DNA of 64,000 bases from Candidatus Daviesbacteria bacterium (GTDB taxonomy: Bacteria > Patescibacteriota > Microgenomatia > Daviesbacterales > UBA10151), in the NCBI GenBank assembly GCA_016176465.1, contig JACOXD010000004.1, forward strand, positions 114,119 to 178,118, written 5' to 3'. A model generated the notes under the pieces. That model saw only the letters and a list, made by a program, of their open reading frames with translations, ran no database searches and was not told where the DNA came from. Below, piece by piece: positions 403 through 61,098 of this stretch. Every line of letters begins with the position of its first letter. Position 1 is the stretch's first letter. The translations under genes were made by a program, and so were the position numbers.

Positions 403-1224
403 TTACTCTAAAAACTGAGGAAGGTTCCCGCTGCAGCTTTCTACCTTTTCCCAACCATTCGGCACATCACAAGGAGTTGGGAACTCTTTGCACTCACCTG
501 TTTTTGAATTTTTTGCTGGAGTAATAACTTGAATACATACTTCATCATTATTCTCAGAAGTGCTCTGCAAAAATTTGAAACTTTCTAAAATCTCTCCTGT
601 TACTTCTGGTTGATTTTGCGTTGGGAATTTGAGCAAATACATTCTGTCTTTGAATGGCACTAAAATAAACTGAGGTTTGCCATCTCTATAGTCCACAATA
701 TTGTATCCACCTAATTGCCCACTTATTGTAGCAATAAGTGTTGGTGCGATTAAGTTACTCCTTAAAGTAAAATCTCCCCAGATAAATGGGAAATACCAAT
801 ATTTTTTATACCAAGCTTCTGGGTCTAAATTATCAGGATTATTAAATACCCAAATGGTTAAAGGGGCATTTTCAAAATCCCCTTGCTTTTCTAAAAGATT
901 AACTGCCCCTACAAATTTTCCTGGCTCATAACCTACATAAGAGCTAAAGTTTTTTCTAAACTCTCCGTTCCCCCTTTTATTAAACTCTTCTTCAGACTCT
1001 TCTTTTAGAATTAAGTTGGCAGGATAGCTAAACTCAATCCCTAAACTTTGGTTTGAATAACTTTTATCTTTTTCCTTATTTTCCTGGGGTTTTAAATTTT
1101 GGGGAATCAATTTTTGAGGAGAGTCTAAATTTATCTTTTGGCTAAAGTAGAAAGCTCCCCCTACAACTCCAACAAAAACTACTATTACTATTAAAGCTAA
1201 AATTGGGGCAAATCCTTTTTGCAC
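403..1224 (-). CDS. Hypothetical secreted or membrane-anchored protein (N-terminal TM or signal anchor)
   Basis: 273 aa with a hydrophobic N-terminus ILALIVIVVFVGVVGGAFYF and no recognisable catalytic motif. It is paralogous to the truncated ORF at 1..85. Confidence 0.5.
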   Translation of the reverse strand: MQKGFAPILALIVIVVFVGVVGGAFYFSQKINLDSPQKLIPQNLKPQENKEKDKSYSNQSLGIEFSYPANLILKEESEEEFNKRGNGEFRKNFSSYVGYEPGKFVGAVNLLEKQGDFENAPLTIWVFNNPDNLDPEAWYKKYWYFPFIWGDFTLRSNLIAPTLIATISGQLGGYNIVDYRDGKPQFILVPFKDRMYLLKFPTQNQPEVTGEILESFKFLQSTSENNDEVCIQVITPAKNSKTGECKEFPTPCDVPNGWEKVESCSGNLPQFLE

Positions 1225-4674: not shown

Positions 4675-5423
4675 TGCCTAAAAAAATCGCTTTAGTGATT
4701 TTCCCAATAATTATTTTACTTTCCTTAGTATTCTTACTTATTAAAATACTATCCACTGATATAAATAATCCTTACAAAATAGTTTTAGTTGGCGATTCCA
4801 TGACCGCAATTTTAGGAGAAAACGTCAGCGAGCTTAAAGATTATTTAAAAAAAGATTTTCCTAATCAAAAGTTTGAAATTATCAATTATAGCCTTGGTTC
4901 AACTAATATCTTTTCTGTTGATGATAGACTGGAGAAGATTTCAACCATATCTGGTAGAATCCATCCTCCTATTTTAAAACAAGACTTTGATTTAATAATT
5001 ATTGAATCCTTTGGACATAACCCGTTGTCTCAATATAAATTAAAAGAAGGGTTAGAAAAACAAACTCACGCTTTAACTTCAGCAATATATAAAATAAAAC
5101 AAACTCACCCAGAATCAAGAATAGTTTTTTTGGCAACAATTGCTCCTCATAAAACCCGCTACGGGGAAGGATCAGTTGTATTAATGCCAGATAAAAGAAT
5201 TGAGTGGGCAAAAGAGAGAGTAGCCTACATAGAAAATCATATTAAATTTGCCAAGGAAAACAACATCCCTTTAGTAAATATTTATCAAAAGTCACTTGAC
5301 GAAAAAGGAGGTGGGAATATTGACTATATTAACACCAAAGACTTTATTCACCCTTCCCCAACTGGTGTATATTTAATTAGCAAAGAGATCGCTGATTTTA
5401 TTAAAAATAATCATCTTTTCTAA
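4674..5423 (+). CDS. SGNH/GDSL-family hydrolase, membrane anchored
   Basis: An N-terminal TM helix, then block I KIVLVGDSMTA (GDS) and block V DFIHPSPTGVYL (DxxH). Confidence 0.55.
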   Translation: MPKKIALVIFPIIILLSLVFLLIKILSTDINNPYKIVLVGDSMTAILGENVSELKDYLKKDFPNQKFEIINYSLGSTNIFSVDDRLEKISTISGRIHPPILKQDFDLIIIESFGHNPLSQYKLKEGLEKQTHALTSAIYKIKQTHPESRIVFLATIAPHKTRYGEGSVVLMPDKRIEWAKERVAYIENHIKFAKENNIPLVNIYQKSLDEKGGGNIDYINTKDFIHPSPTGVYLISKEIADFIKNNHLF

Positions 5424-5448
5424 AAACTTTTTGATATAATCAAAATCC

Positions 5449-6597
5449 ATGAAACTACTTCATTTTTCTGATATTCACATTGGTATGGAAAATTATGCAA
5501 AGCTAGACCCTCAAACTGGACTATCTACTAGATTACTTGATTTTTTTAAAACTTTTGATTTTATAGTGGAAACTGCTTTTGAAAAAGAAGTTGATGCGGT
5601 AGTTTTTGCAGGAGATGCTTATAAAACTAGGGACCCAAATCCAACTCAACAACGAGGCTTTGGAGAGAGAATTAGAAAATTGGCTAAAAAAATTCCAGTT
5701 GTTTTAGTGGTAGGAAACCATGACACTCCAAATGCAGAGGGTAAAGCAAATACTTTAGATATTTACTCCGCTTTGGAAATAGATAATGTCTGGGTTTCAA
5801 GAGTTCCAGAGCTTCTAGAGATTCCAACAAAATCTGGAAATTTACAGATTGTTACTCTTCCTTGGCTTCACAAAAATGATTACAAAACTATTGGAGAAAA
5901 ATTACGTTTACTCTATGATAAAATTCAAAAAAACTCCCCTGCCATATTTTTATCACATGCTGAGGTAATTGGAGCTGAATATGGAAGTGAAAAAGGAATG
6001 ACTATTGCAAATGATGTAACAATTCCTTTGTCAATTTTGCAGGAAAAAAAGCTATCTTATGTCGCACTCGGACACATCCACAAACACCAAGTTTTATCTA
6101 AAGACCCATTAGTTGTATATGCAGGTTCTCCTCATAGGATTGATTTTGGTGAGGAAAAAGAAGAAAAAGGAATTTGTTTGGTTACCATCGATGATGTCAT
6201 TCCCGCGGAAGCGGGAATCCAAAAAAATAGATCCCCGATCAAGTCGGGGATGACATTCCCCGCCACATTCCAATTTACTAAAACTCCTTGTCGAGAGTTT
6301 CTCACCATCATTGTCAATCTAAAAGGGTCTGACCCTAACCCAACTCAAACTATTTTAAATGAGATTGGCAAACAAACTATTAATGAAAAAGTTGTAAAAG
6401 TAATTATTAATATTCCGGCAGAAATATCTGGTGAAATTGAAATGGATAAAATTAAAAAGGCTTTAAACGCTGCACACTACATTGCAGGAATCTCAAGAAA
6501 TGTTGAGAGAAAAGAAAGGATAATTATTGAAACAAAAGGAGTTGAAACTCTTTCTCCAATCCAGGCTTTAGGCAAAAAAATTTACTCCTCTTCATAA
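5449..6597 (+). CDS. sbcD: SbcD/Mre11-family nuclease. It carries an in-frame GC-rich hairpin-element insertion at about 6195-6270.
   Basis: MKLLHFSDIHIG, VVFAGDAYKTRDP, VVLVVGNHDTP and GHIHKHQ are calcineurin-like phosphoesterase motifs typical of SbcD. The segment IPAEAGIQKNRSPIKSGMTFPATFQ is encoded by two GC-rich inverted repeats. Confidence 0.75.
   Translation: MKLLHFSDIHIGMENYAKLDPQTGLSTRLLDFFKTFDFIVETAFEKEVDAVVFAGDAYKTRDPNPTQQRGFGERIRKLAKKIPVVLVVGNHDTPNAEGKANTLDIYSALEIDNVWVSRVPELLEIPTKSGNLQIVTLPWLHKNDYKTIGEKLRLLYDKIQKNSPAIFLSHAEVIGAEYGSEKGMTIANDVTIPLSILQEKKLSYVALGHIHKHQVLSKDPLVVYAGSPHRIDFGEEKEEKGICLVTIDDVIPAEAGIQKNRSPIKSGMTFPATFQFTKTPCREFLTIIVNLKGSDPNPTQTILNEIGKQTINEKVVKVIINIPAEISGEIEMDKIKKALNAAHYIAGISRNVERKERIIIETKGVETLSPIQALGKKIYSSS
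6195..6270. repeat. Pair of GC-rich hairpins (TCATTCCCGC-GGAA-GCGGGAATC and ATCCCCGA-TCAAG-TCGGGGATGAC) inserted in frame in sbcD
   Basis: Perfect inverted repeats of 8-9 bp. The same two hairpins, in the same relative order and in the same orientation with respect to the coding strand, occur at 7075-7176 inside the RT gene. A related ATTCCCG...CGGGAATGACA hairpin is at 26298-26345 in murB. Confidence 0.6.
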
Positions 6598-6628
6598 GAA
6601 AAAATTAGAAGAATATGCTGCAAAGTTA

Positions 6629-7441
6629 CTAGAAAATTAACTTTTGCCTTAATTTAAAACTGTTTGCATGACTTAAATAACCTAAATAAGATTGAAGTGG
6701 CCGATTAAAATTCTCTGATCCTAATTCTTTTAATTTTCTAAAAATTCTTCTTTTTGTTTCTGTTCTAGGCAATCTATAGTGGAGCAAAACAATATATCCT
6801 AAAAAATCAATTCCCCAATCAAGCTTTCTTAGTACAATTTTTTTAGGATGCAACTCAAGTTTTAGATGATCTTTTAGGAATTCACTGATCTGATCTATTA
6901 ATTTAGTATGATAGACTAGTCTATTAGAACTTAATAAAATTAAAAAATCATCAGCATATCTTAAATAATACTTAACTTTTAATTTGTGCTTGATAAATTG
7001 ATCTAACTCATTCATGTAAATATTAGCAAAGATTTGGGAAGTTAAATTACCTAGAGGAATACCCTTACATCCTTTGTCATCCCCGACCCATTTCGCCGAA
7101 GCGGGAGCGAGGCGAGCCTGATCGGGGATCCATGAATATTGTCTGTTTATTATATTCCCGCTTCTGCGGGAATGACATGTACAGAAACTGCTAATTACTT
7201 GTTTTAGTAACCAGGTAATACTCTCATTTGGATCATTAACATAAAAAGAAAAATAATCTCCGTGTCTGTATGTTTTACTCTTTAACATTTCATAAAGACT
7301 AAAAAGATTGTCCTCTAAGTTTCTTTCAAAAGCTTGAATATCAGCTCGTTTCTTTTTTCCTTTTCTAAACTCATTCCATGCTTGAAACAAATTATCTATC
7401 ACACTGCCTGATTTTAGCCTTGACATACCAATTTTTACCAA
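6629..7441 (-). CDS. Reverse transcriptase (group II intron-like or retron-like, 270 aa). The fingers region is replaced by GC-rich hairpin-element sequence, so it is probably inactive.
   Basis: An RT0-like N-terminus (DNLFQAWNEFRKGKKKRADIQAFERNLEDNLFSLYEMLKSKTYRHGDYFSFYVNDP) is followed by RT motifs: GIPLGNLTSQIFANIYMNELD (motifs 3-4), YLRYADDFLIL (motif 5, YADD) and GIDFLGYIV (motif 7). The expected K.R.I...DR...HA block is absent. Two GC-rich palindromes (7075-7132, 7153-7176) occupy that position. Confidence 0.7.
   Translation of the reverse strand: MVKIGMSRLKSGSVIDNLFQAWNEFRKGKKKRADIQAFERNLEDNLFSLYEMLKSKTYRHGDYFSFYVNDPNESITWLLKQVISSFCTCHSRRSGNIINRQYSWIPDQARLAPASAKWVGDDKGCKGIPLGNLTSQIFANIYMNELDQFIKHKLKVKYYLRYADDFLILLSSNRLVYHTKLIDQISEFLKDHLKLELHPKKIVLRKLDWGIDFLGYIVLLHYRLPRTETKRRIFRKLKELGSENFNRPLQSYLGYLSHANSFKLRQKLIF
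7075..7176. repeat. Pair of GC-rich hairpins (TGTCATCCCCGAC...GATCGGGGATCC and ATTCCCGC-TTCT-GCGGGAATGACA) inside the RT ORF
   Basis: See 6195-6270. This copy is the reverse complement of the sbcD copy, with a larger loop (CGCCGAAGCGGGAGCGAGGCGAG) in the first hairpin. Confidence 0.6.
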
Positions 7442-7553
7442 ACTTTATGATTTTTACAAAAATTTAAGTCAGGCAGTTACTACTTTTCCCAAAACTAAAC
7501 GTTATAGGGTATTTGTCAACATTTTACTTCCAAGCTATACTACAAAAACTTAA

Positions 7554-7982
7554 ATGGAAAAAAAGAAATTAAAAAAAGCTGTGATTTTTATTTTTTTAAA
7601 AGATAGAAAAGTCTTAGTAGAAAAGCGGATAAGAGATGCAGAAAAAATATTGAAAAATCAACTTATTTTTCCAGGAGGAGGTTTGGAAGAAAAAGATTTC
7701 GATGATCTAGAAGTTGCGCTGAAACGAGAGATTTTTGAAGAACTCGGAGTATCCGCTTCGAAATTTTCACAATTAGCAAAAGGGTTGAAAATTATTAGTG
7801 CCGGTAAAGATGCCAGTTTACATCCATTTATTATTGAAGCTTGGGAAAATGAAATTCCTGAAAAAATTTTAGATAAAGATGTTCCTCTTTTTTGGGTGGA
7901 TATAGAAGTTATGCTAGAATCCAAAATTGCTCCAACTAAAAAAATAGCAGAATTGGTAAAAGACTATTTAGAAAATGTATGA
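7554..7982 (+). CDS. NUDIX hydrolase
   Basis: A Nudix box FPGGGLEEKDFDDLEVALKREIFEELGV (GGx5Ex7REuxEExGu). A 4-nt overlap (ATGA) couples it to the sbcC start. Confidence 0.65.
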   Translation: MEKKKLKKAVIFIFLKDRKVLVEKRIRDAEKILKNQLIFPGGGLEEKDFDDLEVALKREIFEELGVSASKFSQLAKGLKIISAGKDASLHPFIIEAWENEIPEKILDKDVPLFWVDIEVMLESKIAPTKKIAELVKDYLENV

Positions 7983-10179
7983 TTCCTGTTTTACTGAAAC
8001 TATCTAATTTTACAAGCTATGGAGAAAAAGCGCCTGAATTAAATTTTACAAAATTTAAGCTCGCTGCAATTTCCGGTCCTAATGGTGCTGGTAAATCTTC
8101 ACTTCTTGATGCAATAACATGGTGTCTTTGGGGAACCTCAAGAGCTGGGGACTCATCAGATGAGTTGGTTAGGCTAGGGAGCGATAAAATGTTTGTGCAG
8201 TTTAGTTTTGAACTTGACGGAAATCTTTATACTGTTAAAAGAGCAAGATCTAAAAAAAGCGGTGGAAATACTAGCTTAGAGGTTTGGTCTGGAACAGAGA
8301 AAAAGCCAGAAACACACAATTTAACAGAAGGGACAATTAAAGCGAGCCAGCAAAAAATAATTGATACGCTACACTTAAGTTTTGAAACTTTTACCAACTC
8401 CTCTTTTTTGCGACAGGGTCATGCTGATGAGTTTACTACCAAAGGTCCAACAGATAGAAAAAGAATCTTAGCTAAGAAAAAATAAAAGAAGCGGAGATTA
8501 AATTAACACTTTTGGACTATCAACTTCTGGAAATAGAAGCAGAGCTTTCTTTAAAAAAAGATCGGGAAAAAAATTTTAGTCAAATCCAAAACGAGGTAAA
8601 TTCAGCTAAAAAAGGGGTTTTAGAGATCGAAAGTTTAATAAAAACAATTGAGGAGGAAAAACAATCTATACAGGTAAAGGTCAGTACCTTACTTGAATCC
8701 AAAAAACGCTTTGAGGATTTAAACAAAGAGATTGAGGATTTAAAACTGCAAATTAAGTTAAAGGAAAATACGAAGGAGGAATACCAGCTAATTTTAGATC
8801 AAAAGCAAGTTATTGAGAAAAATTATCAAATGTTACAGAAGTTACAAGAGAAGAAAAAAACTTTGGATAACAAAAGATCACATTTAATAAAACTTAAAGA
8901 TGAGTTGGTTTTGATAGAAAAACAAATTAATGAAAGAGAGGACAAAAGGAAACAAACTATTGCCCATTTAGAAATAGAAGGTAAGGAATTTGAAACAAAA
9001 AATGAACAATTAAAACTTCAAAATGAAAAACTAAGTAAAGAAAAAACCCTATGCCCTACTTGTAATCAACCTATTAGCGGAGAAAAAAACAGGGAAATAA
9101 TTTTAAATAATAAAAAACAAATTGAAGAAAATAACGAAAAACTAAAGGATTTAAGGCAAAAAATTGAAAAATATAAAGTGGTTATTTTGCCAGAATATCA
9201 ACTGGCCAAGGGAAAAGATATGGAGGTTAAAAAATTAGAAGAGGAAACTAAAGAATATTTTGAAACAACCAAAACCCTTTTAGAATTAGATAAGTACTCC
9301 CAAGCATATATGAAACTACAGCAAGCAGAAGTTGCTGTTAAAACCCACCAAGAAACTCTAATTGATTTAGAGAAAATATATAAGATAAAAAGTAAGGATT
9401 TAGAAAAATCCCAAAACTTTAAGGAAAACCTGGATAAGTTTTCAAAGACGTTAGAGGAAATTGAGGAAAAATTAGAAGGCAAGATGGAAGTTAAAAAAGA
9501 ACTCTCCCAAAAGGTTTTAGATCTCTCAGGAAGAGCTGGTGAAGCAAAACAATTAATAGATAGAACCATCCAAATAGAAAATTTATTCAACTTGAAAAAG
9601 AAAGAGAAAAATAAATTAACTAAAGAAAAAGAAATATTTGAGGAGTTAAGCTTAGCTTTTGGTAAAAGAGGCATTCAGGCAATGATTATTGAGGCAGCTA
9701 TTCCAGAAATTGAGGATGAAGCAAATAGGCTACTTAATAAATTAACTGAAGGCAGGATGAAGGTTCGCTTTGAAACTCAAAAAGAAACAAAAACTAAAGT
9801 TCAAACTAGTGAGGGAAAAGTTCATGCTTTAGTTGAGACTTTAGATATCATCATCTCAGATGAAATGGGTGAGAGAAATTATGATCTATATTCAGGAGGA
9901 GAAACTTTTCGGGTCAATTTTGCAATAAGATTGGCAATCTCCAAATTATTAACTCATCGAGCTGGAGCAAAGTTACAATTTTTAATTATTGATGAAGGAT
10001 TTGGTACTCAAGATGCAACAGGTAGAGCAAGATTAATAGAAGTAATTGATGCTATTAAAGATGATTTTGAGAAAATTTTAATTATTACTCATCTTGAGGA
10101 GTTAAAAGACGAGTTTCCGGTAAGAATTGAGGTTTCAAAAGATGCTTCAGGATCCACTTTTGAAATGGTCGGCGCTTAA
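7979..10179 (+). CDS. sbcC: SbcC/Rad50-family ATPase, split into two ORFs (7979..8485 and 8512..10179) by a -1 frame break at an A-run (8477-8485)
   Basis: N-terminal ORF: Walker A GPNGAGKSSLLDAITWCL. C-terminal ORF: a long coiled coil, a zinc-hook CPTC, the ABC signature LSGGETFRVNFAIRLA, and Walker B/D-loop LIIDEGFGTQD. A -1 shift after AAA (8480-8482) reads ...RILAKKK-IKEAEIKLTLLDYQLL..., which fuses both parts collinearly. The second ORF otherwise starts at TTG. Confidence 0.7.
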
Positions 10180-10193
10180 TATACAATTTAAAG

Positions 10194-10616
10194 GTGAGAA
10201 TTTTCAAAAAACTTCTACCTCTAATCCTCTCTATTGTAATTTTAGGATACATTATATATTTTACAAAACCTCCTAATTCTTGGCCTGAGGCATCTAGCTT
10301 TCAAATTTTATCTTTCTTTATCCCCTTTTTACTTTTTACAACTTTCACAATAAATTTATTTATTAGTTATTTGCCCAGAAGTTTCGCTATTGCGCTATCT
10401 TTAATGTTACTTTTAGTATTAAAGGCAGTTAATGAATTAAATCTATTAACAACTGCTGAAGTTTCGCTTTTAGTTTTTTTATTTTTTATTTTTCTTAAAA
10501 AGCCTCCCTTTTCCAGAAAAGATAGGTCTATAAATAAAGATGTACCAATTCCTAAATTAAGATTGAATAATGAAGCAAGTAGGAGTAAACTTAAGAATCT
10601 TGGAAGGAGAAATTAA
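10194..10616 (+). CDS. Small hydrophobic membrane protein (hypothetical)
   Basis: 140 aa with several predicted TM segments and a basic C-terminus. Placed between sbcC and metG. Confidence 0.35.
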   Translation: MRIFKKLLPLILSIVILGYIIYFTKPPNSWPEASSFQILSFFIPFLLFTTFTINLFISYLPRSFAIALSLMLLLVLKAVNELNLLTTAEVSLLVFLFFIFLKKPPFSRKDRSINKDVPIPKLRLNNEASRSKLKNLGRRN

Positions 10617-11984
10617 GTGAATAAATTTTATGTAACCAACTCTATACCATATGTTAATGCCAAACCTCATGTGGGATTAGCCTTGGAGTATACTCAATCA
10701 GATACAATTTATAGGTATCATAAGCTTTTAGGGGAAGAGTGCTTACTTCTTTGCGGTGCAGATGAAAATGCTTTGAAAAATGTTCAAGCTGCTGAAGCTG
10801 CTGGTGAAGATGTCCAAAGTTTTGTTGATAAAAATGCTAAATTTTTTCAGGATTTAGCTGAAAAGTTATACATCCACTTTGATGTTTTCCAAAAAGGAAG
10901 CGATCGTAAACACCATTTAGCTAGCCAAAAGTTATGGCAGCTTTGCAATAAAAGTGGCGATATCTATAAAAAATCCTATAGAGGTCTTTACTGCGTCGGT
11001 TGCGAACAGTTTTATACTAAGGAGGAATTAAATGAAAGTGGTGAGTGCTTTGAACATCCGGGTAAAAAACTTGATGAGGTTTCAGAAGAGAACTATTTTT
11101 TCAAACTATCAAAATACCAAGATAAACTCTTACAATTAATAGCGTCTGATGAATATCAAATCATTCCTGAATTTAGAAAAAATGAGATGCTTATCTTTAT
11201 CAAAAGCAGCTTACAGGATTTTAGTATTTCCAGAAGTAATGAAAGGGCTAAAAACTGGGGGGTGCAGGTTCCAGGAGATCCAACACAGCGAATTTATGTA
11301 TGGTTTGACGCTTTAAATATTTACCAATCAGGTATTGGGTTTGGATCTGATGAAGAAAAATATAACAAATGGTGGCCGGCTAATTTACATGTTATTGGCA
11401 AAGGTATTATTAGATTTCATGCAATTTATTGGCCAGCAATTTTGCTTTCTGCTGGGCTAAAGTTACCTAAAAAGTTATTTGTCCATGAATATTTCACTGT
11501 TAATGGTCAAAAGATTTCCAAAACCTTAGGTAACGTTATAGATCCAACTCCCCTAACTTCGCAGTTTGGTGCTGACGGACTAAGATATTATTGTTTAGCT
11601 AAAGTCTCCCCCTTCCAAGATGGAGATTTTACAATTGATAAGTTAAAAGAAGCATATAACTCTGATCTAGCTAATGGTTTAGGCAACTTAGTTTCAAGAG
11701 TTGCTAAGCTTTGTGAGAAAATTAATTTTGAAGCTCCAAAATTAGAGGAAAAATTTGATCCAGAAGTAAAGCAGTTACTTGAGGAATATAAATTTAATGA
11801 GGCACTAGCTTGGATCTGGGAGATTATTTCTATTGCAGATTCTAGGGTAAATGAAGAAAAACCTTGGGAAAAAGAGGGTCTAGATTTAAAAGAAGATTTA
11901 GATGAATTAGTTAGATTAATTCAACGTATTGCTTTTAATTTACAACCCTTTCGGCTCTTTTTCCCAGGATATAATGATATTTAA
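10617..11984 (+). CDS. metG: Methionyl-tRNA synthetase, minimal form lacking a C-terminal tRNA-binding extension
   Basis: The class I HIGH-region variant NAKPHVGLALEY, the CVGCEQF zinc knuckle, the KMSKS motif KISKTLGNVIDP, and an anticodon-binding helix region. Confidence 0.8.
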   Translation: MNKFYVTNSIPYVNAKPHVGLALEYTQSDTIYRYHKLLGEECLLLCGADENALKNVQAAEAAGEDVQSFVDKNAKFFQDLAEKLYIHFDVFQKGSDRKHHLASQKLWQLCNKSGDIYKKSYRGLYCVGCEQFYTKEELNESGECFEHPGKKLDEVSEENYFFKLSKYQDKLLQLIASDEYQIIPEFRKNEMLIFIKSSLQDFSISRSNERAKNWGVQVPGDPTQRIYVWFDALNIYQSGIGFGSDEEKYNKWWPANLHVIGKGIIRFHAIYWPAILLSAGLKLPKKLFVHEYFTVNGQKISKTLGNVIDPTPLTSQFGADGLRYYCLAKVSPFQDGDFTIDKLKEAYNSDLANGLGNLVSRVAKLCEKINFEAPKLEEKFDPEVKQLLEEYKFNEALAWIWEIISIADSRVNEEKPWEKEGLDLKEDLDELVRLIQRIAFNLQPFRLFFPGYNDI

Positions 11985-12675
11985 AAATTTTTCTAATTTA
12001 ATTTATGCAGTCTCTACTATTAGTGATGCAAATATGTCTTTTAAAACCGGTCCAAAAGAGGAGGTTTTAGCTAATCGTCAAAGGTTTGCTCAAAAGATTG
12101 GGATTGAACCAAACTTTATCAGTGTTCATCAAGTTCATGGCAATAAGGTCCTAGTTGTTTCTAATAACGACTTAGGTAAGTCAGAAAAAGAAGCAGATGC
12201 CATAATTACTAAAGAGCCAAATATTTTTTTACTTATAGGCAGCGCTGATTGTTTGGCAATCTCTTTCTCTGATCCAAAAAATAAAACCATTGGCCTATCT
12301 CATGCAGGCTGGAGGGGTCTGGATAAAAAAATTATTAAACAAACAATTTTTAAAATGAAGCAACATTTTAAAACCGATCCTAGAGATTTAATTATTGAGA
12401 TCTCCCCATCAATTGGTCCTTGCCATTATGGCAACTTAAGTTTGAAAAATAAAAAATCCTGGGAAAAATATTTCAGTAAAGATGCAGATAATAGCAAGGG
12501 CCTAGATTTATGGCAAGCGGCTAAGGATCAGTTAACGAAAGAAGGAGTTCCAGATAAAAACATTGCCAATTTAAAAGTTTGCACTTTTGATAATAAAAAT
12601 TACTTCTCTAACAGAAGATCTAACTTAACAAAAGAACCAGATTCCCGTTTTGCTACAATATTGGGGGTTAAATGA
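11974..12675 (+). CDS. YfiH/PgeF-family (DUF152, laccase-domain) protein
   Basis: QVHGNKVLVV, GSADCLAISFSDP, GLSHAGWRGL and a CH dyad are signature residues of the YfiH family. The track ORF begins at 11929, but an ATG at 11974 avoids a long overlap with metG. Confidence 0.6.
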   Translation: MIFKNFSNLIYAVSTISDANMSFKTGPKEEVLANRQRFAQKIGIEPNFISVHQVHGNKVLVVSNNDLGKSEKEADAIITKEPNIFLLIGSADCLAISFSDPKNKTIGLSHAGWRGLDKKIIKQTIFKMKQHFKTDPRDLIIEISPSIGPCHYGNLSLKNKKSWEKYFSKDADNSKGLDLWQAAKDQLTKEGVPDKNIANLKVCTFDNKNYFSNRRSNLTKEPDSRFATILGVK

Positions 12676-25602: not shown

Positions 25603-25687
25603 TAACACATTATGTCATTCTGATACGTCAGTGAAGAATCTAATTAGATCCTTCTCCCCTCCGGGGGCCCGCACTAAGGATGACAAA
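25603..25687. repeat. Bipartite GC-rich hairpin element (module X, gtcattctga...gaagaatc, plus module Y, gatccttc...cccgcact.aggatgacaaa), intergenic copy upstream of murB
   Basis: Module Y at 25637-25686 is about 85% identical to 38161-38204 (inside valS) and is reverse-complementary to 60746-60783. Module X recurs at 38206-38246 and 60790-60817. A short Y-like copy is at 24043-24070. Confidence 0.6.
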
Positions 25688-36302: not shown

Positions 36303-38550
36303 AACTCAAAATACTGAGGAAAAATGGTACAAGTTTTGGGAAAATCAGGGACTTTTTAAAGCAGACCCTGATTCTTCCAAGCCTTCATATTCTATTTTAA
36401 TGCCTCCTCCTAATTTAACTGGTGAACCACACGCTGGGCACACAATCCAACATTTAATAATGGACGGCTTAGCCAGATTTAAAAGAATGCAAGGATTTGA
36501 TGTTTTATTTCAACCCGGTGTTGATCATGCAGGGATTCAATTTGAAGGAACTTTAAATAAGTTATTAGAAAAAGAAGGTTTAAGGAAGATAAGTTTGGGT
36601 AGAGAGAAATGGATGGAAAGAGCCTGGCAATTTAAAGGTGAGATTTATAAGTCTTTCCATAAAACCTGGAGAGCTATGGGGATTTCAGCTGACTGGAAAA
36701 GAGAAGTTTTTACTCTAGATCCTAAAATGCAGCGAGCTGTTTTAGAGGAATTTAAAACTTTTTGGGAACAAGATCTTTTATACAAAGGAGCATATATTGT
36801 CCAGTGGTGCCCTAAAGATGCTACTGCTATTGAGGATTTGGAAATGGAGTATGAGGAAAGGACTGAAAAGCTCTACTATGTTAAATATAAAGTAGCAGGA
36901 GACCCTAGATATCCTAACGAAGAATACATTGTGGTAGCTACTGCTCGTCCAGAAACAATTTACGCCGATGTCGCTATTGCTGTTCATCCTGAATCTAGAT
37001 ACAAAGATTATGCAGGAAGAGATGCTTATAAACCTCTCGCTCCTAGTGAAAAACTCGTAGATAGAGAGATTAAAATAATTACAGATGATAGGGTTAATAA
37101 AGAATTTGGAACAGGTGCTTTAAAAATAACTCCTGGCCATGATCCTCTAGATTATAAGATAGGCAAAGACCACAACTTATCTATCTTACATGCTGTTGAT
37201 AAAGCAGGAGGGATGACAGATTTGGCAGGCGATCTTAAAGGATTATCTGTTTCAGAAGCTCGAGAAAAAACAGCTGAGATGTTAGACAAACAAGGATCTA
37301 TTGACCACATTGAGGAATACACTCATTCAGTGCCAGTTTGTGAAAGGTGTAAATCTACTATTGAACCCTTAGTTTCCGAGGAATGGTTTGTAAAAATGAA
37401 GCCTCTTGCCCAAAAAGCCCTAAAATCCCTAAAGGATATCAACTTTTTTCCAAAGAATTTTGAAAAAGTAATTGCTGATTGGTTAGAAGAAATTCATGAC
37501 TGGTCAATTTCTAGGTCTTTGTGGTGGGGACACAGAATCCCTGTTTGGTATTGTCAAAAGTGTAATTCAAACCACGAAGTAGGAAAAGATAAAGATATGG
37601 TTATATCCTTGACTCACCCAGAGCAAAATTGCCAAACTTGTAAGCTAAATCAATGGGTCCAGGATGATCAGATTTTAGATACCTGGTTTTCATCAGGTCT
37701 TTGGCCCATGGCAACCTTAGGCTGGCCCTCCTCCGCTGAAGCTTCGGAGGGTAAACCAGACGAGTGGTTAAACATGAAGAAATATTACCCATATGATTTT
37801 GAAATATCTGCTCCAGAAATTAAATTTTTATGGATTGCTAGAATGATTATGCTGGGGGTTTGGTTTGCTCAGGATATTCCTTTTAAAAATATGTTTTTTA
37901 CAGGGACACTGCGAGACCTTCAAGGAAGAAAGTTTTCTAAGTCTTTAGGAAATGGGGTTTTTCCTTTGCCTTTAATTGATACTTGGGGAGTGGATGCTTA
38001 TAGAATGGCTATTTTTGGCTTTGCAGCTCCTGCAAGAGATGGAAGGGCAAGCAGACAAACTTTGGATGAAAGGTGTAAGAACTTTAGAAATTTTGTAACA
38101 AAGCTTAAAAACATTGCTAAGTTTATAGTTGATTTAAAACCAAAAGGAACGCAGTCATTAGATCCTTCCTCCTTAAAGGGACCCGCACTTCAGGATGACC
38201 AAACAGAGAATGTCATTCTGAGCGCCAGAGAAGAATCCAATCCAGAAGATATTGAAATTCTTGAGAAACTTAATAAAACAATTAAAAATGTAACAAAAGA
38301 ACTAAATAAGTTTAACTTTCATTTAGCCTCTGATTTTATTTATGAATTTATTTGGCATGAATTTGCAGATAAATATATTGAATCATCTAAAAATAGAAGA
38401 AAAGATGCTCAACCAGTTTTAGAATATATCTTTAAAACTTCTTTAGAGCTTCTTCATCCTTTCATGCCCTTTATTACGGAGGAAATTTGGCAAAGGCTCC
38501 CACATGCGGAAAAATCCATAATGATCGCCAAGTGGCATGAAGTTAAATAA
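36295..38550 (+). CDS. valS: Valyl-tRNA synthetase, short form (751 aa, no C-terminal coiled coil), carrying a hairpin-element insertion at 38161-38247
   Basis: The HIGH motif PPPNLTGEPHAGH, an editing domain, KMSKS KFSKSLGN, and an anticodon-binding domain. The segment SLDPSSLKGPALQDDQTENVILSAREESNPEDIE is encoded by the GC-rich bipartite element. Confidence 0.8.
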   Translation: MDKTQNTEEKWYKFWENQGLFKADPDSSKPSYSILMPPPNLTGEPHAGHTIQHLIMDGLARFKRMQGFDVLFQPGVDHAGIQFEGTLNKLLEKEGLRKISLGREKWMERAWQFKGEIYKSFHKTWRAMGISADWKREVFTLDPKMQRAVLEEFKTFWEQDLLYKGAYIVQWCPKDATAIEDLEMEYEERTEKLYYVKYKVAGDPRYPNEEYIVVATARPETIYADVAIAVHPESRYKDYAGRDAYKPLAPSEKLVDREIKIITDDRVNKEFGTGALKITPGHDPLDYKIGKDHNLSILHAVDKAGGMTDLAGDLKGLSVSEAREKTAEMLDKQGSIDHIEEYTHSVPVCERCKSTIEPLVSEEWFVKMKPLAQKALKSLKDINFFPKNFEKVIADWLEEIHDWSISRSLWWGHRIPVWYCQKCNSNHEVGKDKDMVISLTHPEQNCQTCKLNQWVQDDQILDTWFSSGLWPMATLGWPSSAEASEGKPDEWLNMKKYYPYDFEISAPEIKFLWIARMIMLGVWFAQDIPFKNMFFTGTLRDLQGRKFSKSLGNGVFPLPLIDTWGVDAYRMAIFGFAAPARDGRASRQTLDERCKNFRNFVTKLKNIAKFIVDLKPKGTQSLDPSSLKGPALQDDQTENVILSAREESNPEDIEILEKLNKTIKNVTKELNKFNFHLASDFIYEFIWHEFADKYIESSKNRRKDAQPVLEYIFKTSLELLHPFMPFITEEIWQRLPHAEKSIMIAKWHEVK
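38161..38247. repeat. Bipartite GC-rich hairpin element (Y+X modules) inserted in frame in valS
   Basis: GATCCTTCCTCCTTAAAGGGACCCGCACTTCAGGATGACCAAACA plus GAGAATGTCATTCTGAGCGCCAGAGAAGAATCC. These are homologous to 25603-25687 and inverted relative to 60745-60818. Confidence 0.6.
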
Positions 38551-59820: not shown

Positions 59821-61098
59821 ATGAAAGAATCCCTTGCTCAAACCCCACATTATTTAGGGGAAAATTCTATATTAGATGGGACAGGCTTTGATTTATATAA
59901 AGAAGTCCAAAGATTTTTTTTAAACTTAAATCAAGCTAACAATCCTACACCTGAGCTTGAAGCTAATATTAGAACTTATGTAGTGGAATATATCTTTAAC
60001 GGAACAGTAATACCTCATTTAGTTGATCAAGACGGCGAGGGAAATGTAATTAACAGCTATGACAAACAAAGAATAGTTAATAAAATTACCCCAAGTGAAA
60101 GAAGAGGTGTAATTTTAAGAGCTTCAGAAAAAATTGATGAGTTTTTTAGGAATTTGAGAAGAACAGGCAGAAAAGGTCTTGCAGCAGTCAATAGTCCTGA
60201 AGGTTGGACAGGAATGAGAGATAGTGAAGGAGACTTAATTGAATATGTTAATCATCAAATCCCCATTTTTTGGACGAGGGAGGATAAAAGGTTTAGGGGT
60301 TTAACTTTAGTAACTGATTTAACGCCTGAGCAATCAAAACAATTATCAATTAACTTAGGAATTAATGAGATAAAGTTATCAAGACAAGGTGAGGATTTAA
60401 TTTGCGATATTGTGGAAAACCCAGCAACATTTAGTTATCCAAGATCCCGAATTAAAACACCAGAAGATGTTTTCCAAGAGATCTTAAGAGTTAGAGGCTC
60501 TGGTGATTTTGCCTTTAAACAACAGGATGGGTCTATAAAGTATGTACCTGTTAAAAAGATGCTTGAGGATATTAGAAGGTTTGATGAGCTGCTTGAGTTT
60601 AGTGAAGAGATAGAAGTATATATTGCAAATTTAAAACAGTTTATTTTAGATAATACAATAGATTTTAAAAATCATTTTACTCAAAAAAGATTAGTGAGTG
60701 AAATAGAAAGAACAATTCTGAAAATAACAAGGGTAACTCTTATATCAAGTACAAATGTCATCCTGACCCGCCTGGGCGGGGAAGGATCCACAAAATTAGA
60801 TTCTTCGCCTTCGGCTCAGAATGACAAACACGCTTTGAATGACAATGATTATTTTCCATCTCCAGATAATTTTAAAAAAGAGATTGCTTATTTAAAGATG
60901 CAAGCAGGCTGTGCTGGAGGGGGTAAAGGAAAAAGAAAGGTTTTACTATCTGATAGTGCTAAAGTTTTAGAAAATTTAAACTCTTTTGGGGTTGGTAAAG
61001 GAAGAAGGTGTAAAATGTGTGGGGAGATAAATTATTGTAGTGAGAGTTGCTGGAAAGAGGATTGTGGTGGAGATTTGGATTTTGCAGCTGCAGCATAA
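59821..61098 (+). CDS. Hypothetical protein with a C-terminal Cys-rich zinc-ribbon-like motif. It carries an internal hairpin-element insertion (60745-60818).
   Basis: MKESLAQTPHYLGEN... and a C-terminal CKMCGEINYCSESCWKEDCGGD (C-x2-C...C-x3-C-x4-C). The segment TNVILTRLGGEGSTKLDSSPSAQNDKHAL is encoded by the bipartite GC-rich element. Confidence 0.45.
   Translation: MKESLAQTPHYLGENSILDGTGFDLYKEVQRFFLNLNQANNPTPELEANIRTYVVEYIFNGTVIPHLVDQDGEGNVINSYDKQRIVNKITPSERRGVILRASEKIDEFFRNLRRTGRKGLAAVNSPEGWTGMRDSEGDLIEYVNHQIPIFWTREDKRFRGLTLVTDLTPEQSKQLSINLGINEIKLSRQGEDLICDIVENPATFSYPRSRIKTPEDVFQEILRVRGSGDFAFKQQDGSIKYVPVKKMLEDIRRFDELLEFSEEIEVYIANLKQFILDNTIDFKNHFTQKRLVSEIERTILKITRVTLISSTNVILTRLGGEGSTKLDSSPSAQNDKHALNDNDYFPSPDNFKKEIAYLKMQAGCAGGGKGKRKVLLSDSAKVLENLNSFGVGKGRRCKMCGEINYCSESCWKEDCGGDLDFAAAA

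Follow-up and report, generated by a model that had tools for sequence, protein, structure and literature searches.

A reverse transcriptase ORF between sbcD and sbcC of a Candidatus Daviesbacteria genome is very probably the relic of a chromosomal DGR

A short reverse transcriptase (RT) gene lies between sbcD and sbcC in the genome of a Candidatus Daviesbacteria bacterium, and the locus raises the question of which kind of element the gene comes from and whether anything of that element still works. In the stretch of DNA analyzed here (the window, 64 kb in length and 34.6% GC), the gene appears as an 813-nt ORF on the minus strand (6629-7441) that reads 270 aa from a TTG codon at 7441. The NCBI call of the same gene starts at a GTG (7400-7402) and gives a 257-aa product, 100% identical to the corresponding part of the ORF, which is named RNA-directed DNA polymerase (P0001, Candidatus Daviesbacteria bacterium). 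The ORF list, this protein and a match to Pfam RVT_1 agree with an earlier note on this DNA that the ORF is a real RT fragment. It is very probably the non-functional relic of a chromosomal diversity-generating retroelement (DGR) of the CPR/Patescibacteria. No second RT was found in the 64-kb window.

The RVT_1 match (E 1.9e-12) is confined to residues 123-218 of the ORF, which correspond to profile positions 114-205 of 205, and thus only the second half of the RT domain is present. This C-terminal half (6629-7075, minus strand) runs from motif 4 (GIPLGNLTSQ) through motif 5 with the YADD box and motifs 6-7 to the thumb, shares 74% identity with the homolog P0007 and aligns to residues 173-310 of the PDB chain 8ub7_A. 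At the other end of the ORF is a retained N-terminal RT0 segment (7229-7402, minus strand; ‘IDNLFQAWNEF...FYVNDP’), with 70% identity to residues 23-79 of P0007 and an alignment to residues 15-75 of 8ub7_A. Relative to the closest homolog (P0002, at locus L001), an in-frame deletion of 282 nt, or 94 codons, has occurred between ‘...FYVNDP’ and ‘...WLLKQVISSF’, with its junction at 7226-7229 on the minus strand. The lost block, from KxRHIHKA to LKLDIKKFFASVDH, comprised motifs 1, 2 and 3, a region that in RTs generally includes the fingers and should hold the first catalytic aspartate (the motif-3 block). Downstream of the deletion a native segment is left, ESITWLLKQVISSF (7184-7225, minus strand), the last part of the motif 3-4 linker. 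The window ORF does not hold the complete set of RT motifs 1-7 with all catalytic aspartates. The earlier note had rightly recognized the RT0 segment and, as comparison with homologs confirms, the absence of the K/R..DR..HH fingers block; its reading of motifs 3-7 and YADD holds for motifs 4-7 and the YADD box and fails for motif 3, which the 94-codon deletion removed.

The class of the RT emerges from its homologs. About 7,900 of these were found, the best 120 of which are nearly all 325-375 aa in length, and the named proteins among these best 120 are from Microgenomates/CPR genomes. Intact homologs (330-350 aa) align end to end with 8ub7_A, a chain of 328 aa. In a PDB search with one such protein (P0018, 333 aa), residues 10-323 match this chain at E 2.6e-41, as against 4.5e-20 for the next match, the group II RT GsI-IIC, and 1e-5 or worse for Drt3a, G2L4 and Drt2; no retron RT is present among the PDB matches of P0018 at E<=0.001. 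The chain bears the PDB label ‘Reverse transcriptase’ and, to judge from the aligned sequence, is presumably the bRT of the Bordetella phage DGR. It is also the best PDB match of the window ORF (E 4.4e-17), which aligns to it in two blocks (ORF residues 15-75 to chain residues 15-75, and 121-259 to 173-310). In addition, the motif 4 of the window RT is DGR-like (motif I/LGxxxSQ), and by this feature and its closeness to bRT the ORF falls within the DGR clade of RTs.

Other RT classes have to be weighed against this assignment. The top NCBIfam match of the window RT is the group II model TIGR04416 (E 6e-18), and some homologs are annotated as ‘reverse transcriptase/maturase’, as might be expected of the remnant of a group II intron ORF. 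However, the window RT reaches 65 bits with this model, whose cut-off is 300, and the Pfam and NCBIfam searches detected no X/maturase or En (endonuclease) domain in the window RT, as the earlier note had stated. That note had likewise seen no room for group II ribozyme domains, and an Rfam search of 5400-10300 (E<=1), which for retrons covers only the described msr/msd types, returned neither group II intron domains nor retron RNA; its sole match was FtrB at a chance-level E of 0.9, located on a hairpin element in sbcD. The intact relatives, moreover, are proteins of 330-350 aa whose match to 8ub7_A is 21 orders of magnitude better than that to the group II RT and which are accompanied by TR, VR and Avd. 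For these reasons a group II intron remnant was rejected, and we consider such an origin exceedingly improbable.

An RT of the retron or defense type (DRT/UG/Abi) can be approached in the same way. In the C-terminal half, PADLOC has matches to RT_UG17 and Drt3a (about 1e-17 to 1e-19), but the UG matches cover only the shared palm, and the best PADLOC model for the window RT is the generic RT. The NCBIfam scores lie far below their cut-offs: 54 of 200 bits for Drt3a, 45 of 390 for Drt2, 22 of 450 for Drt4 and 35 of 235 for retron St85. No effector is fused to the RT or lies next to it, neither a retron nor any other RNA family was matched, and the relatives are DGRs; on the model scores, the missing retron RNA and the nature of the relatives, a retron or defense RT was rejected as well. 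Judged from sequence, then, the window RT is a DGR RT of the CPR/Microgenomates and not a group II, retron or defense RT. Of the classification in the earlier note, ‘decayed retroelement’ and ‘not group II’ stand, and ‘retron or defense-type’ gives way to the evidence of bRT-like intact homologs flanked by bAvd and TR/VR pairs.

The organization of an intact element can be seen in these relatives. Of the 41 loci in which the RT is intact and the upstream sequence extends for 1.3 kb or more, 35 contain a TR/VR pair at a threshold of 75%, and over these loci 589 of the 645 TR/VR mismatches fall at TR adenines; three further loci contain pairs just below the threshold. In L005, a 114-nt TR at 463-576 of the locus is paired with a VR at 14-127, at the end of the upstream gene, and the differences are at TR adenines in 21 of 21 cases. 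Between TR and RT, on the opposite strand, is an ORF of 79-96 aa that matches Pfam bAvd (PF22296; E 4.9e-18 and 5e-14), and a bAvd-like gene of this kind is present in almost every fetched locus. The cassette order is sbcD, the RT convergent with it, a (TG)n tract, avd divergent to the RT, TR, the target gene with its 3′ VR, and sbcC. The full cassette resides between sbcD and sbcC in L016 and in the metagenome loci L087, L090, L092, L093 and L119, and partial forms with the same convergence of RT and sbcD are found in L003-5, L036, L091 and L130.

Two further observations concern individual loci. The bAvd-like gene, divergent from the RT and placed between it and the TR (587-874, minus strand, in L005; 10969-11208 in L016; 6407-6697 in L028; and most of L086-L165), apparently has TTG or TTA as its first codon (LSQ...). 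Between L092 and L093 neither the RT nor the gene order differs, but a TR/VR pair with 11 A-site differences is present in L093 and no repeat at all upstream in L092, which may reflect loss of the VR or an assembly gap in the hypervariable region.

A cellular, CPR-restricted clade of DGRs has been described as clade 2 (Roux et al., 2021; PMC8144416), and a ‘CPR set’ of DGRs has been reported by Wu et al. (2018; PMC5758913). The locus resembles these CPR cellular DGRs in its RT family, its Daviesbacteria/Microgenomates host and its chromosomal site, and in having relatives with target-VR, TR, bAvd and A-specific differences; it differs from them in that the window copy lacks TR, VR and target as well as RT motifs 1-3, the native start and almost all of avd. 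With the Bordetella BPP-1 DGR (bRT-Avd, TR and the VR of mtd), the family shares, in addition to the end-to-end alignment of intact homologs with 8ub7_A, the ...G.LTSQ.FAN... motif 4, a Y(A/M)DD box and the bAvd-like partner. The identity, however, is about 30%, the element is cellular rather than phage-borne, and gene order and orientation are different, with avd co-oriented with the RT in Bordetella and divergent from it here; residues 76-172 of the Bordetella bRT have no counterpart in the window copy. By analogy with the Bordetella paradigm, the RT together with Avd would copy TR RNA into cDNA with misincorporation opposite adenines, and the cDNA would replace the VR. Of this mechanism, what the relatives show is the sequence footprint, namely the A-specific TR/VR mismatches.

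Of 74 loci from this DGR family, 47 have the (TG)n tract (n = 6-24); it lies between the divergent avd and RT genes, about 35-50 nt before the conserved N-terminus of the RT, as in L005 (935-966), L003, L092/L093 and L096-L099. Its length varies among loci with an identical RT (n = 12, 16 and 17 for P0007), and n ranges from 20 to 24 among L096-L099, whose RT match statistics are identical. Conceivably, the tract may act as a phase-variable switch of DGR activity. In the DGR literature examined, neither a divergent avd nor a (TG)n tract before the RT was found described.

Little of this cassette is left in the window. Homology to the relatives stops at 7505, approximately 100 nt upstream of the RT. 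Up to that point the window has kept a conserved intergenic block (7403-7463), which separates the divergent avd and RT in relatives and is a putative promoter region, and a remnant of the bAvd-like gene that amounts to its first 14 codons (LSQAVTTFPKTKRY; 7464-7505, plus strand); everything beyond that in avd has been lost by deletion, along with the TR and the VR-bearing target gene. A sigma-70 promoter scan of the block on the minus strand found nothing, and so no RT promoter is claimed there. At 7397-7405 (minus strand) is a second deletion junction, which ends exactly at the (TG)n tract: of the tract only GTGTG is left, and some 40 nt that contained the native ATG and the first approximately eight codons are missing. 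The ancestral arrangement would have been a cassette of target-VR, TR, divergent bAvd-like gene, (TG)n tract and RT, bounded by the 3′ end of sbcD on one side and the 5′ end of sbcC on the other. Three deletions would lead from there to the present form, one removing avd after codon 14 together with the TR and the target gene, another ending at the (TG)n tract and removing the native RT start, and a third removing RT motifs 1-3 in the in-frame loss of 282 nt.

Searches for the missing parts returned the same picture. No TR/VR-type, A-biased repeat pair is present anywhere in the 64-kb window, no repeats were found in the region upstream of the window RT, and tblastn with the target proteins of three relatives gave no match in the window. 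TR/VR pair, target with a 3′ VR and Avd gene are accordingly all absent from the window apart from the 14-codon avd stub; the search covered 64 kb of the genome, and an intact DGR could be present elsewhere in it. The two flanks that the earlier note had singled out for msr/msd-like or template-repeat structures hold neither: 7442-7553 contains the conserved block between avd and RT, followed by the 14-codon remnant of avd and the promoter region of the NUDIX gene, and in 6598-6628 lies the ancestral end of sbcD, now out of frame. Since the relic is unable to polymerize and has neither template nor target, it most likely does nothing.

Broken RTs of the same DGR family were observed elsewhere, at 1267-1636 of L124, 852-1676 of L139 and 474-968 of L094. 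In the first of these, only residues 3-78 and 287-340 are left, in a copy that adjoins avd and a TR/VR pair, and the contig carries a second, intact DGR beside it.

The retained parts of the window RT are nevertheless strikingly clean when set against its losses. Of the 126 highly conserved columns of the family, 42 are lost in the window RT, but 82 of the 84 such positions in the retained parts are intact; intact homologs deviate at the same conserved positions by a mean of 1.0 and a maximum of 4, a range that includes the window RT. The reading frame, too, runs without interruption for 813 nt, at a genomic GC content of 35%. Clean conserved sites and an open frame imply either that the decay is very recent or that the remainder is still under constraint. 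Under the second alternative, a fingerless, non-catalytic fragment made up of RT0, palm motifs 4-7 and thumb would be retained and expressed, having been exapted after the loss of Avd, TR and target, for example for nucleic-acid binding, Avd-like binding or regulation. That the large deletion is in frame, that the conserved upstream block has been kept and that the GTG start has an AGG upstream of it would be in keeping with such retention, as would the open frame and the conserved residues themselves. An in-frame deletion, however, has a chance probability of one in three, the fragment has lost Avd, TR and target as partners, and neighboring genes are decaying too. The nearest homologs of the window RT are about 75% identical and none has the same deletion, and among about 8000 homologs and 165 loci no second genome with the 94-codon-deleted form was found. 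Retention in a new role is thus distinctly improbable, and the clean state of the retained parts fits a very recent loss of the DGR.

A further feature of the relic is a GC-rich element of 101 nt with GTCAT...ATGAC ends (7076-7176), which folds as a pair of hairpins (z = -3.3) and lies, as an in-frame insertion, in the loop that joins motif 3 to motif 4. The earlier note had supposed that hairpin-element sequence replaced the fingers. The element is instead a separate in-frame insertion before motif 4, and P0002, a homolog of 375 aa with all RT motifs and intact fingers, contains the same element at the same site. Among about 100 homologs with all RT motifs, 15 have related elements, of several sequence families, in the same loop. 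The element in the window RT would be an older, tolerated in-frame insertion, and the loop before GIPLGN, to judge from these sequences, either attracts insertions as a hot spot or is the one place that tolerates them. A sister element is inserted in frame in sbcD (6196-6254), where relatives have varied inserts at the corresponding loop (e.g., L007, L014 and L031).

Extra sequence just before GIPLGN was seen in P0002, P0004, P0006, P0009, P0012, P0019, P0023, P0030, P0082 and other homologs, and at least nine of the 15 loop inserts start with ...SFC.CH, like the hairpin elements. Five GC-rich, two-hairpin GTCAT...ATGAC elements of 46-101 nt were noted in the window (6196-6254, 7076-7176, 25614-25684, 38154-38199 and 60757-60825); the two that are in frame, in sbcD and the RT, are each one base short of a multiple of three. 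By description, the Rickettsia palindromic elements are similar in being short, GC-rich hairpin repeats that sit in frame at tolerant surface loops (here those of the RT and SbcD), but the present elements have GTCAT...ATGAC termini and two hairpins and belong to another sequence family and another host phylum.

The genes around the RT are themselves damaged. On the plus strand, sbcD (5449-6640, with the present ORF at 5449-6597; TIGR00619, E 5e-33) has a frameshift at its 3′ end (6570-6640), so that the ancestral C-terminus of approximately 22 aa (…AKKFTPLHKKKLEEYAAKLLEN*), which ends with the stop at 6638-6640, is now encoded in a different frame; ancestrally, as in relatives, this 3′ end overlapped the 3′ end of the RT gene. 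In sbcC (7979-10179, plus strand), which is a single ORF of 727-744 aa in relatives, the loss of about 46 nt near 8474-8511, which took ‘DILGLDHYDKLEEKAKE’ with it, has broken the frame and left two ORFs, at 7979-8485 (168 aa) and 8512-10179 (555 aa). An SbcCD operon with an intact sbcD and a single sbcC ORF is thus not present in the window. Farther along the window, the 3′ end of metG is frameshifted (11940-11990), with loss of the last approximately 26 aa of MetRS; about eight other neighboring genes are full length. Three host genes within 6.5 kb have frame-breaking, multi-nucleotide deletions relative to all relatives, and this 6.5-kb stretch is either really decaying or poorly assembled.

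It could be, then, that the deletions are assembly or consensus artefacts of the MAG and that the real organism has an intact DGR, sbcD, sbcC and metG at this place. Four genes between 5.4 and 12 kb (sbcD, the RT, sbcC and the essential metG) would share the same kind of multi-nucleotide deletion in the midst of full-length neighbors, the retained RT parts have no extra substitutions at conserved sites, and the hypervariable VR, the (TG)n tracts and the hairpin repeats are all hard to assemble. However, the deletions measure from 14 to more than 1000 nt and are not of the homopolymer-error type, and the one that took avd, TR and target joins cleanly to a NUDIX gene with a promoter-like site of its own. 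Six independent mis-joins would be needed in one 191-kb contig, and RT relics occur in other assemblies too. On balance we regard an artefact as unlikely and a true DGR relic as the better account of the locus.

There remains the question of what the location between sbcD and sbcC signifies. The earlier note was correct that the two genes are normally adjacent: among 62 species-representative genomes with both genes on one contig, nothing lies between them in 38. A NUDIX gene without an RT occupies the junction in ten genomes and a NUDIX gene together with another gene in one, other cargo is present in 12, and a DGR in one. The NUDIX gene is therefore not the unusual intruder that the note had made of it, the sbcD-NUDIX-sbcC arrangement being that of ten related genomes; L006, the closest relative (sbcD 86% identical), is one with a NUDIX-only junction and no RT. 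By sequence likeness, the other cargo at these junctions (among L006-L071) includes PIN/DUF433-like and MazF/RHH toxin-antitoxin pairs, HicB, and HAD-like and pentapeptide-repeat proteins; a four-helix-bundle protein, the sole cargo checked against Pfam, matches 23S_rRNA_IVP at E 1.7e-37. No relative was found in which an RT and a NUDIX gene occur together at this junction, and the ancestral arrangement given above is a putative one. Since RT and NUDIX gene occur independently and many unrelated cargo genes are found at the same place, the junction is a variable cargo site, and the proximity of RT, NUDIX and SbcCD is positional rather than functional.

In the window, the NUDIX gene (7554-7982, plus strand) is intact, is not part of the DGR and has its own promoter-like site, TTGTCA-N17-TATACT, at 7513-7541. 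Its product matches the PADLOC candidate defense model PDC-S07 at E 6e-11, about level with the MutT models (E 1e-10, far below cut-off). In several relatives, the start or stop of the NUDIX gene overlaps sbcD and sbcC.

The earlier note had raised the possibility that the RT forms a defense module with SbcCD and NUDIX, and the PDC-S07 match, together with a match of the sbcC N-terminus to PADLOC LmuB, could be taken as hints of one. The RT and NUDIX genes are, however, never joined at the junction in relatives, unrelated genes take the same position, the motif-3 block of the RT is missing, and both sbcD and sbcC are frame-broken. Taken together with the low scores of the defense and retron models, these points make a defense-type RT, with or without such a module, very unlikely, and the proposal of the module is not supported. 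In the DGR-relic account, NUDIX and sbcCD would be neighbors by position only.

The RT relic is of a known kind, an ordinary decaying gene and not a new defense system, and the suggestion of a defense module of RT, SbcCD and NUDIX can be removed. A public entry named ‘RNA-directed DNA polymerase’ is predicted to be unable to polymerize, and sbcD and sbcC on either side of it are disrupted as well, which calls for caution with the annotation of this region. More widely, the comparison with relatives brings to light a variable cargo site between sbcD and sbcC in Daviesbacteria, a hypervariable (TG)n tract before most RTs of the family, and hairpin elements that recur in one loop of the RT. The locus itself would offer a snapshot of the loss of a DGR from a small CPR genome.
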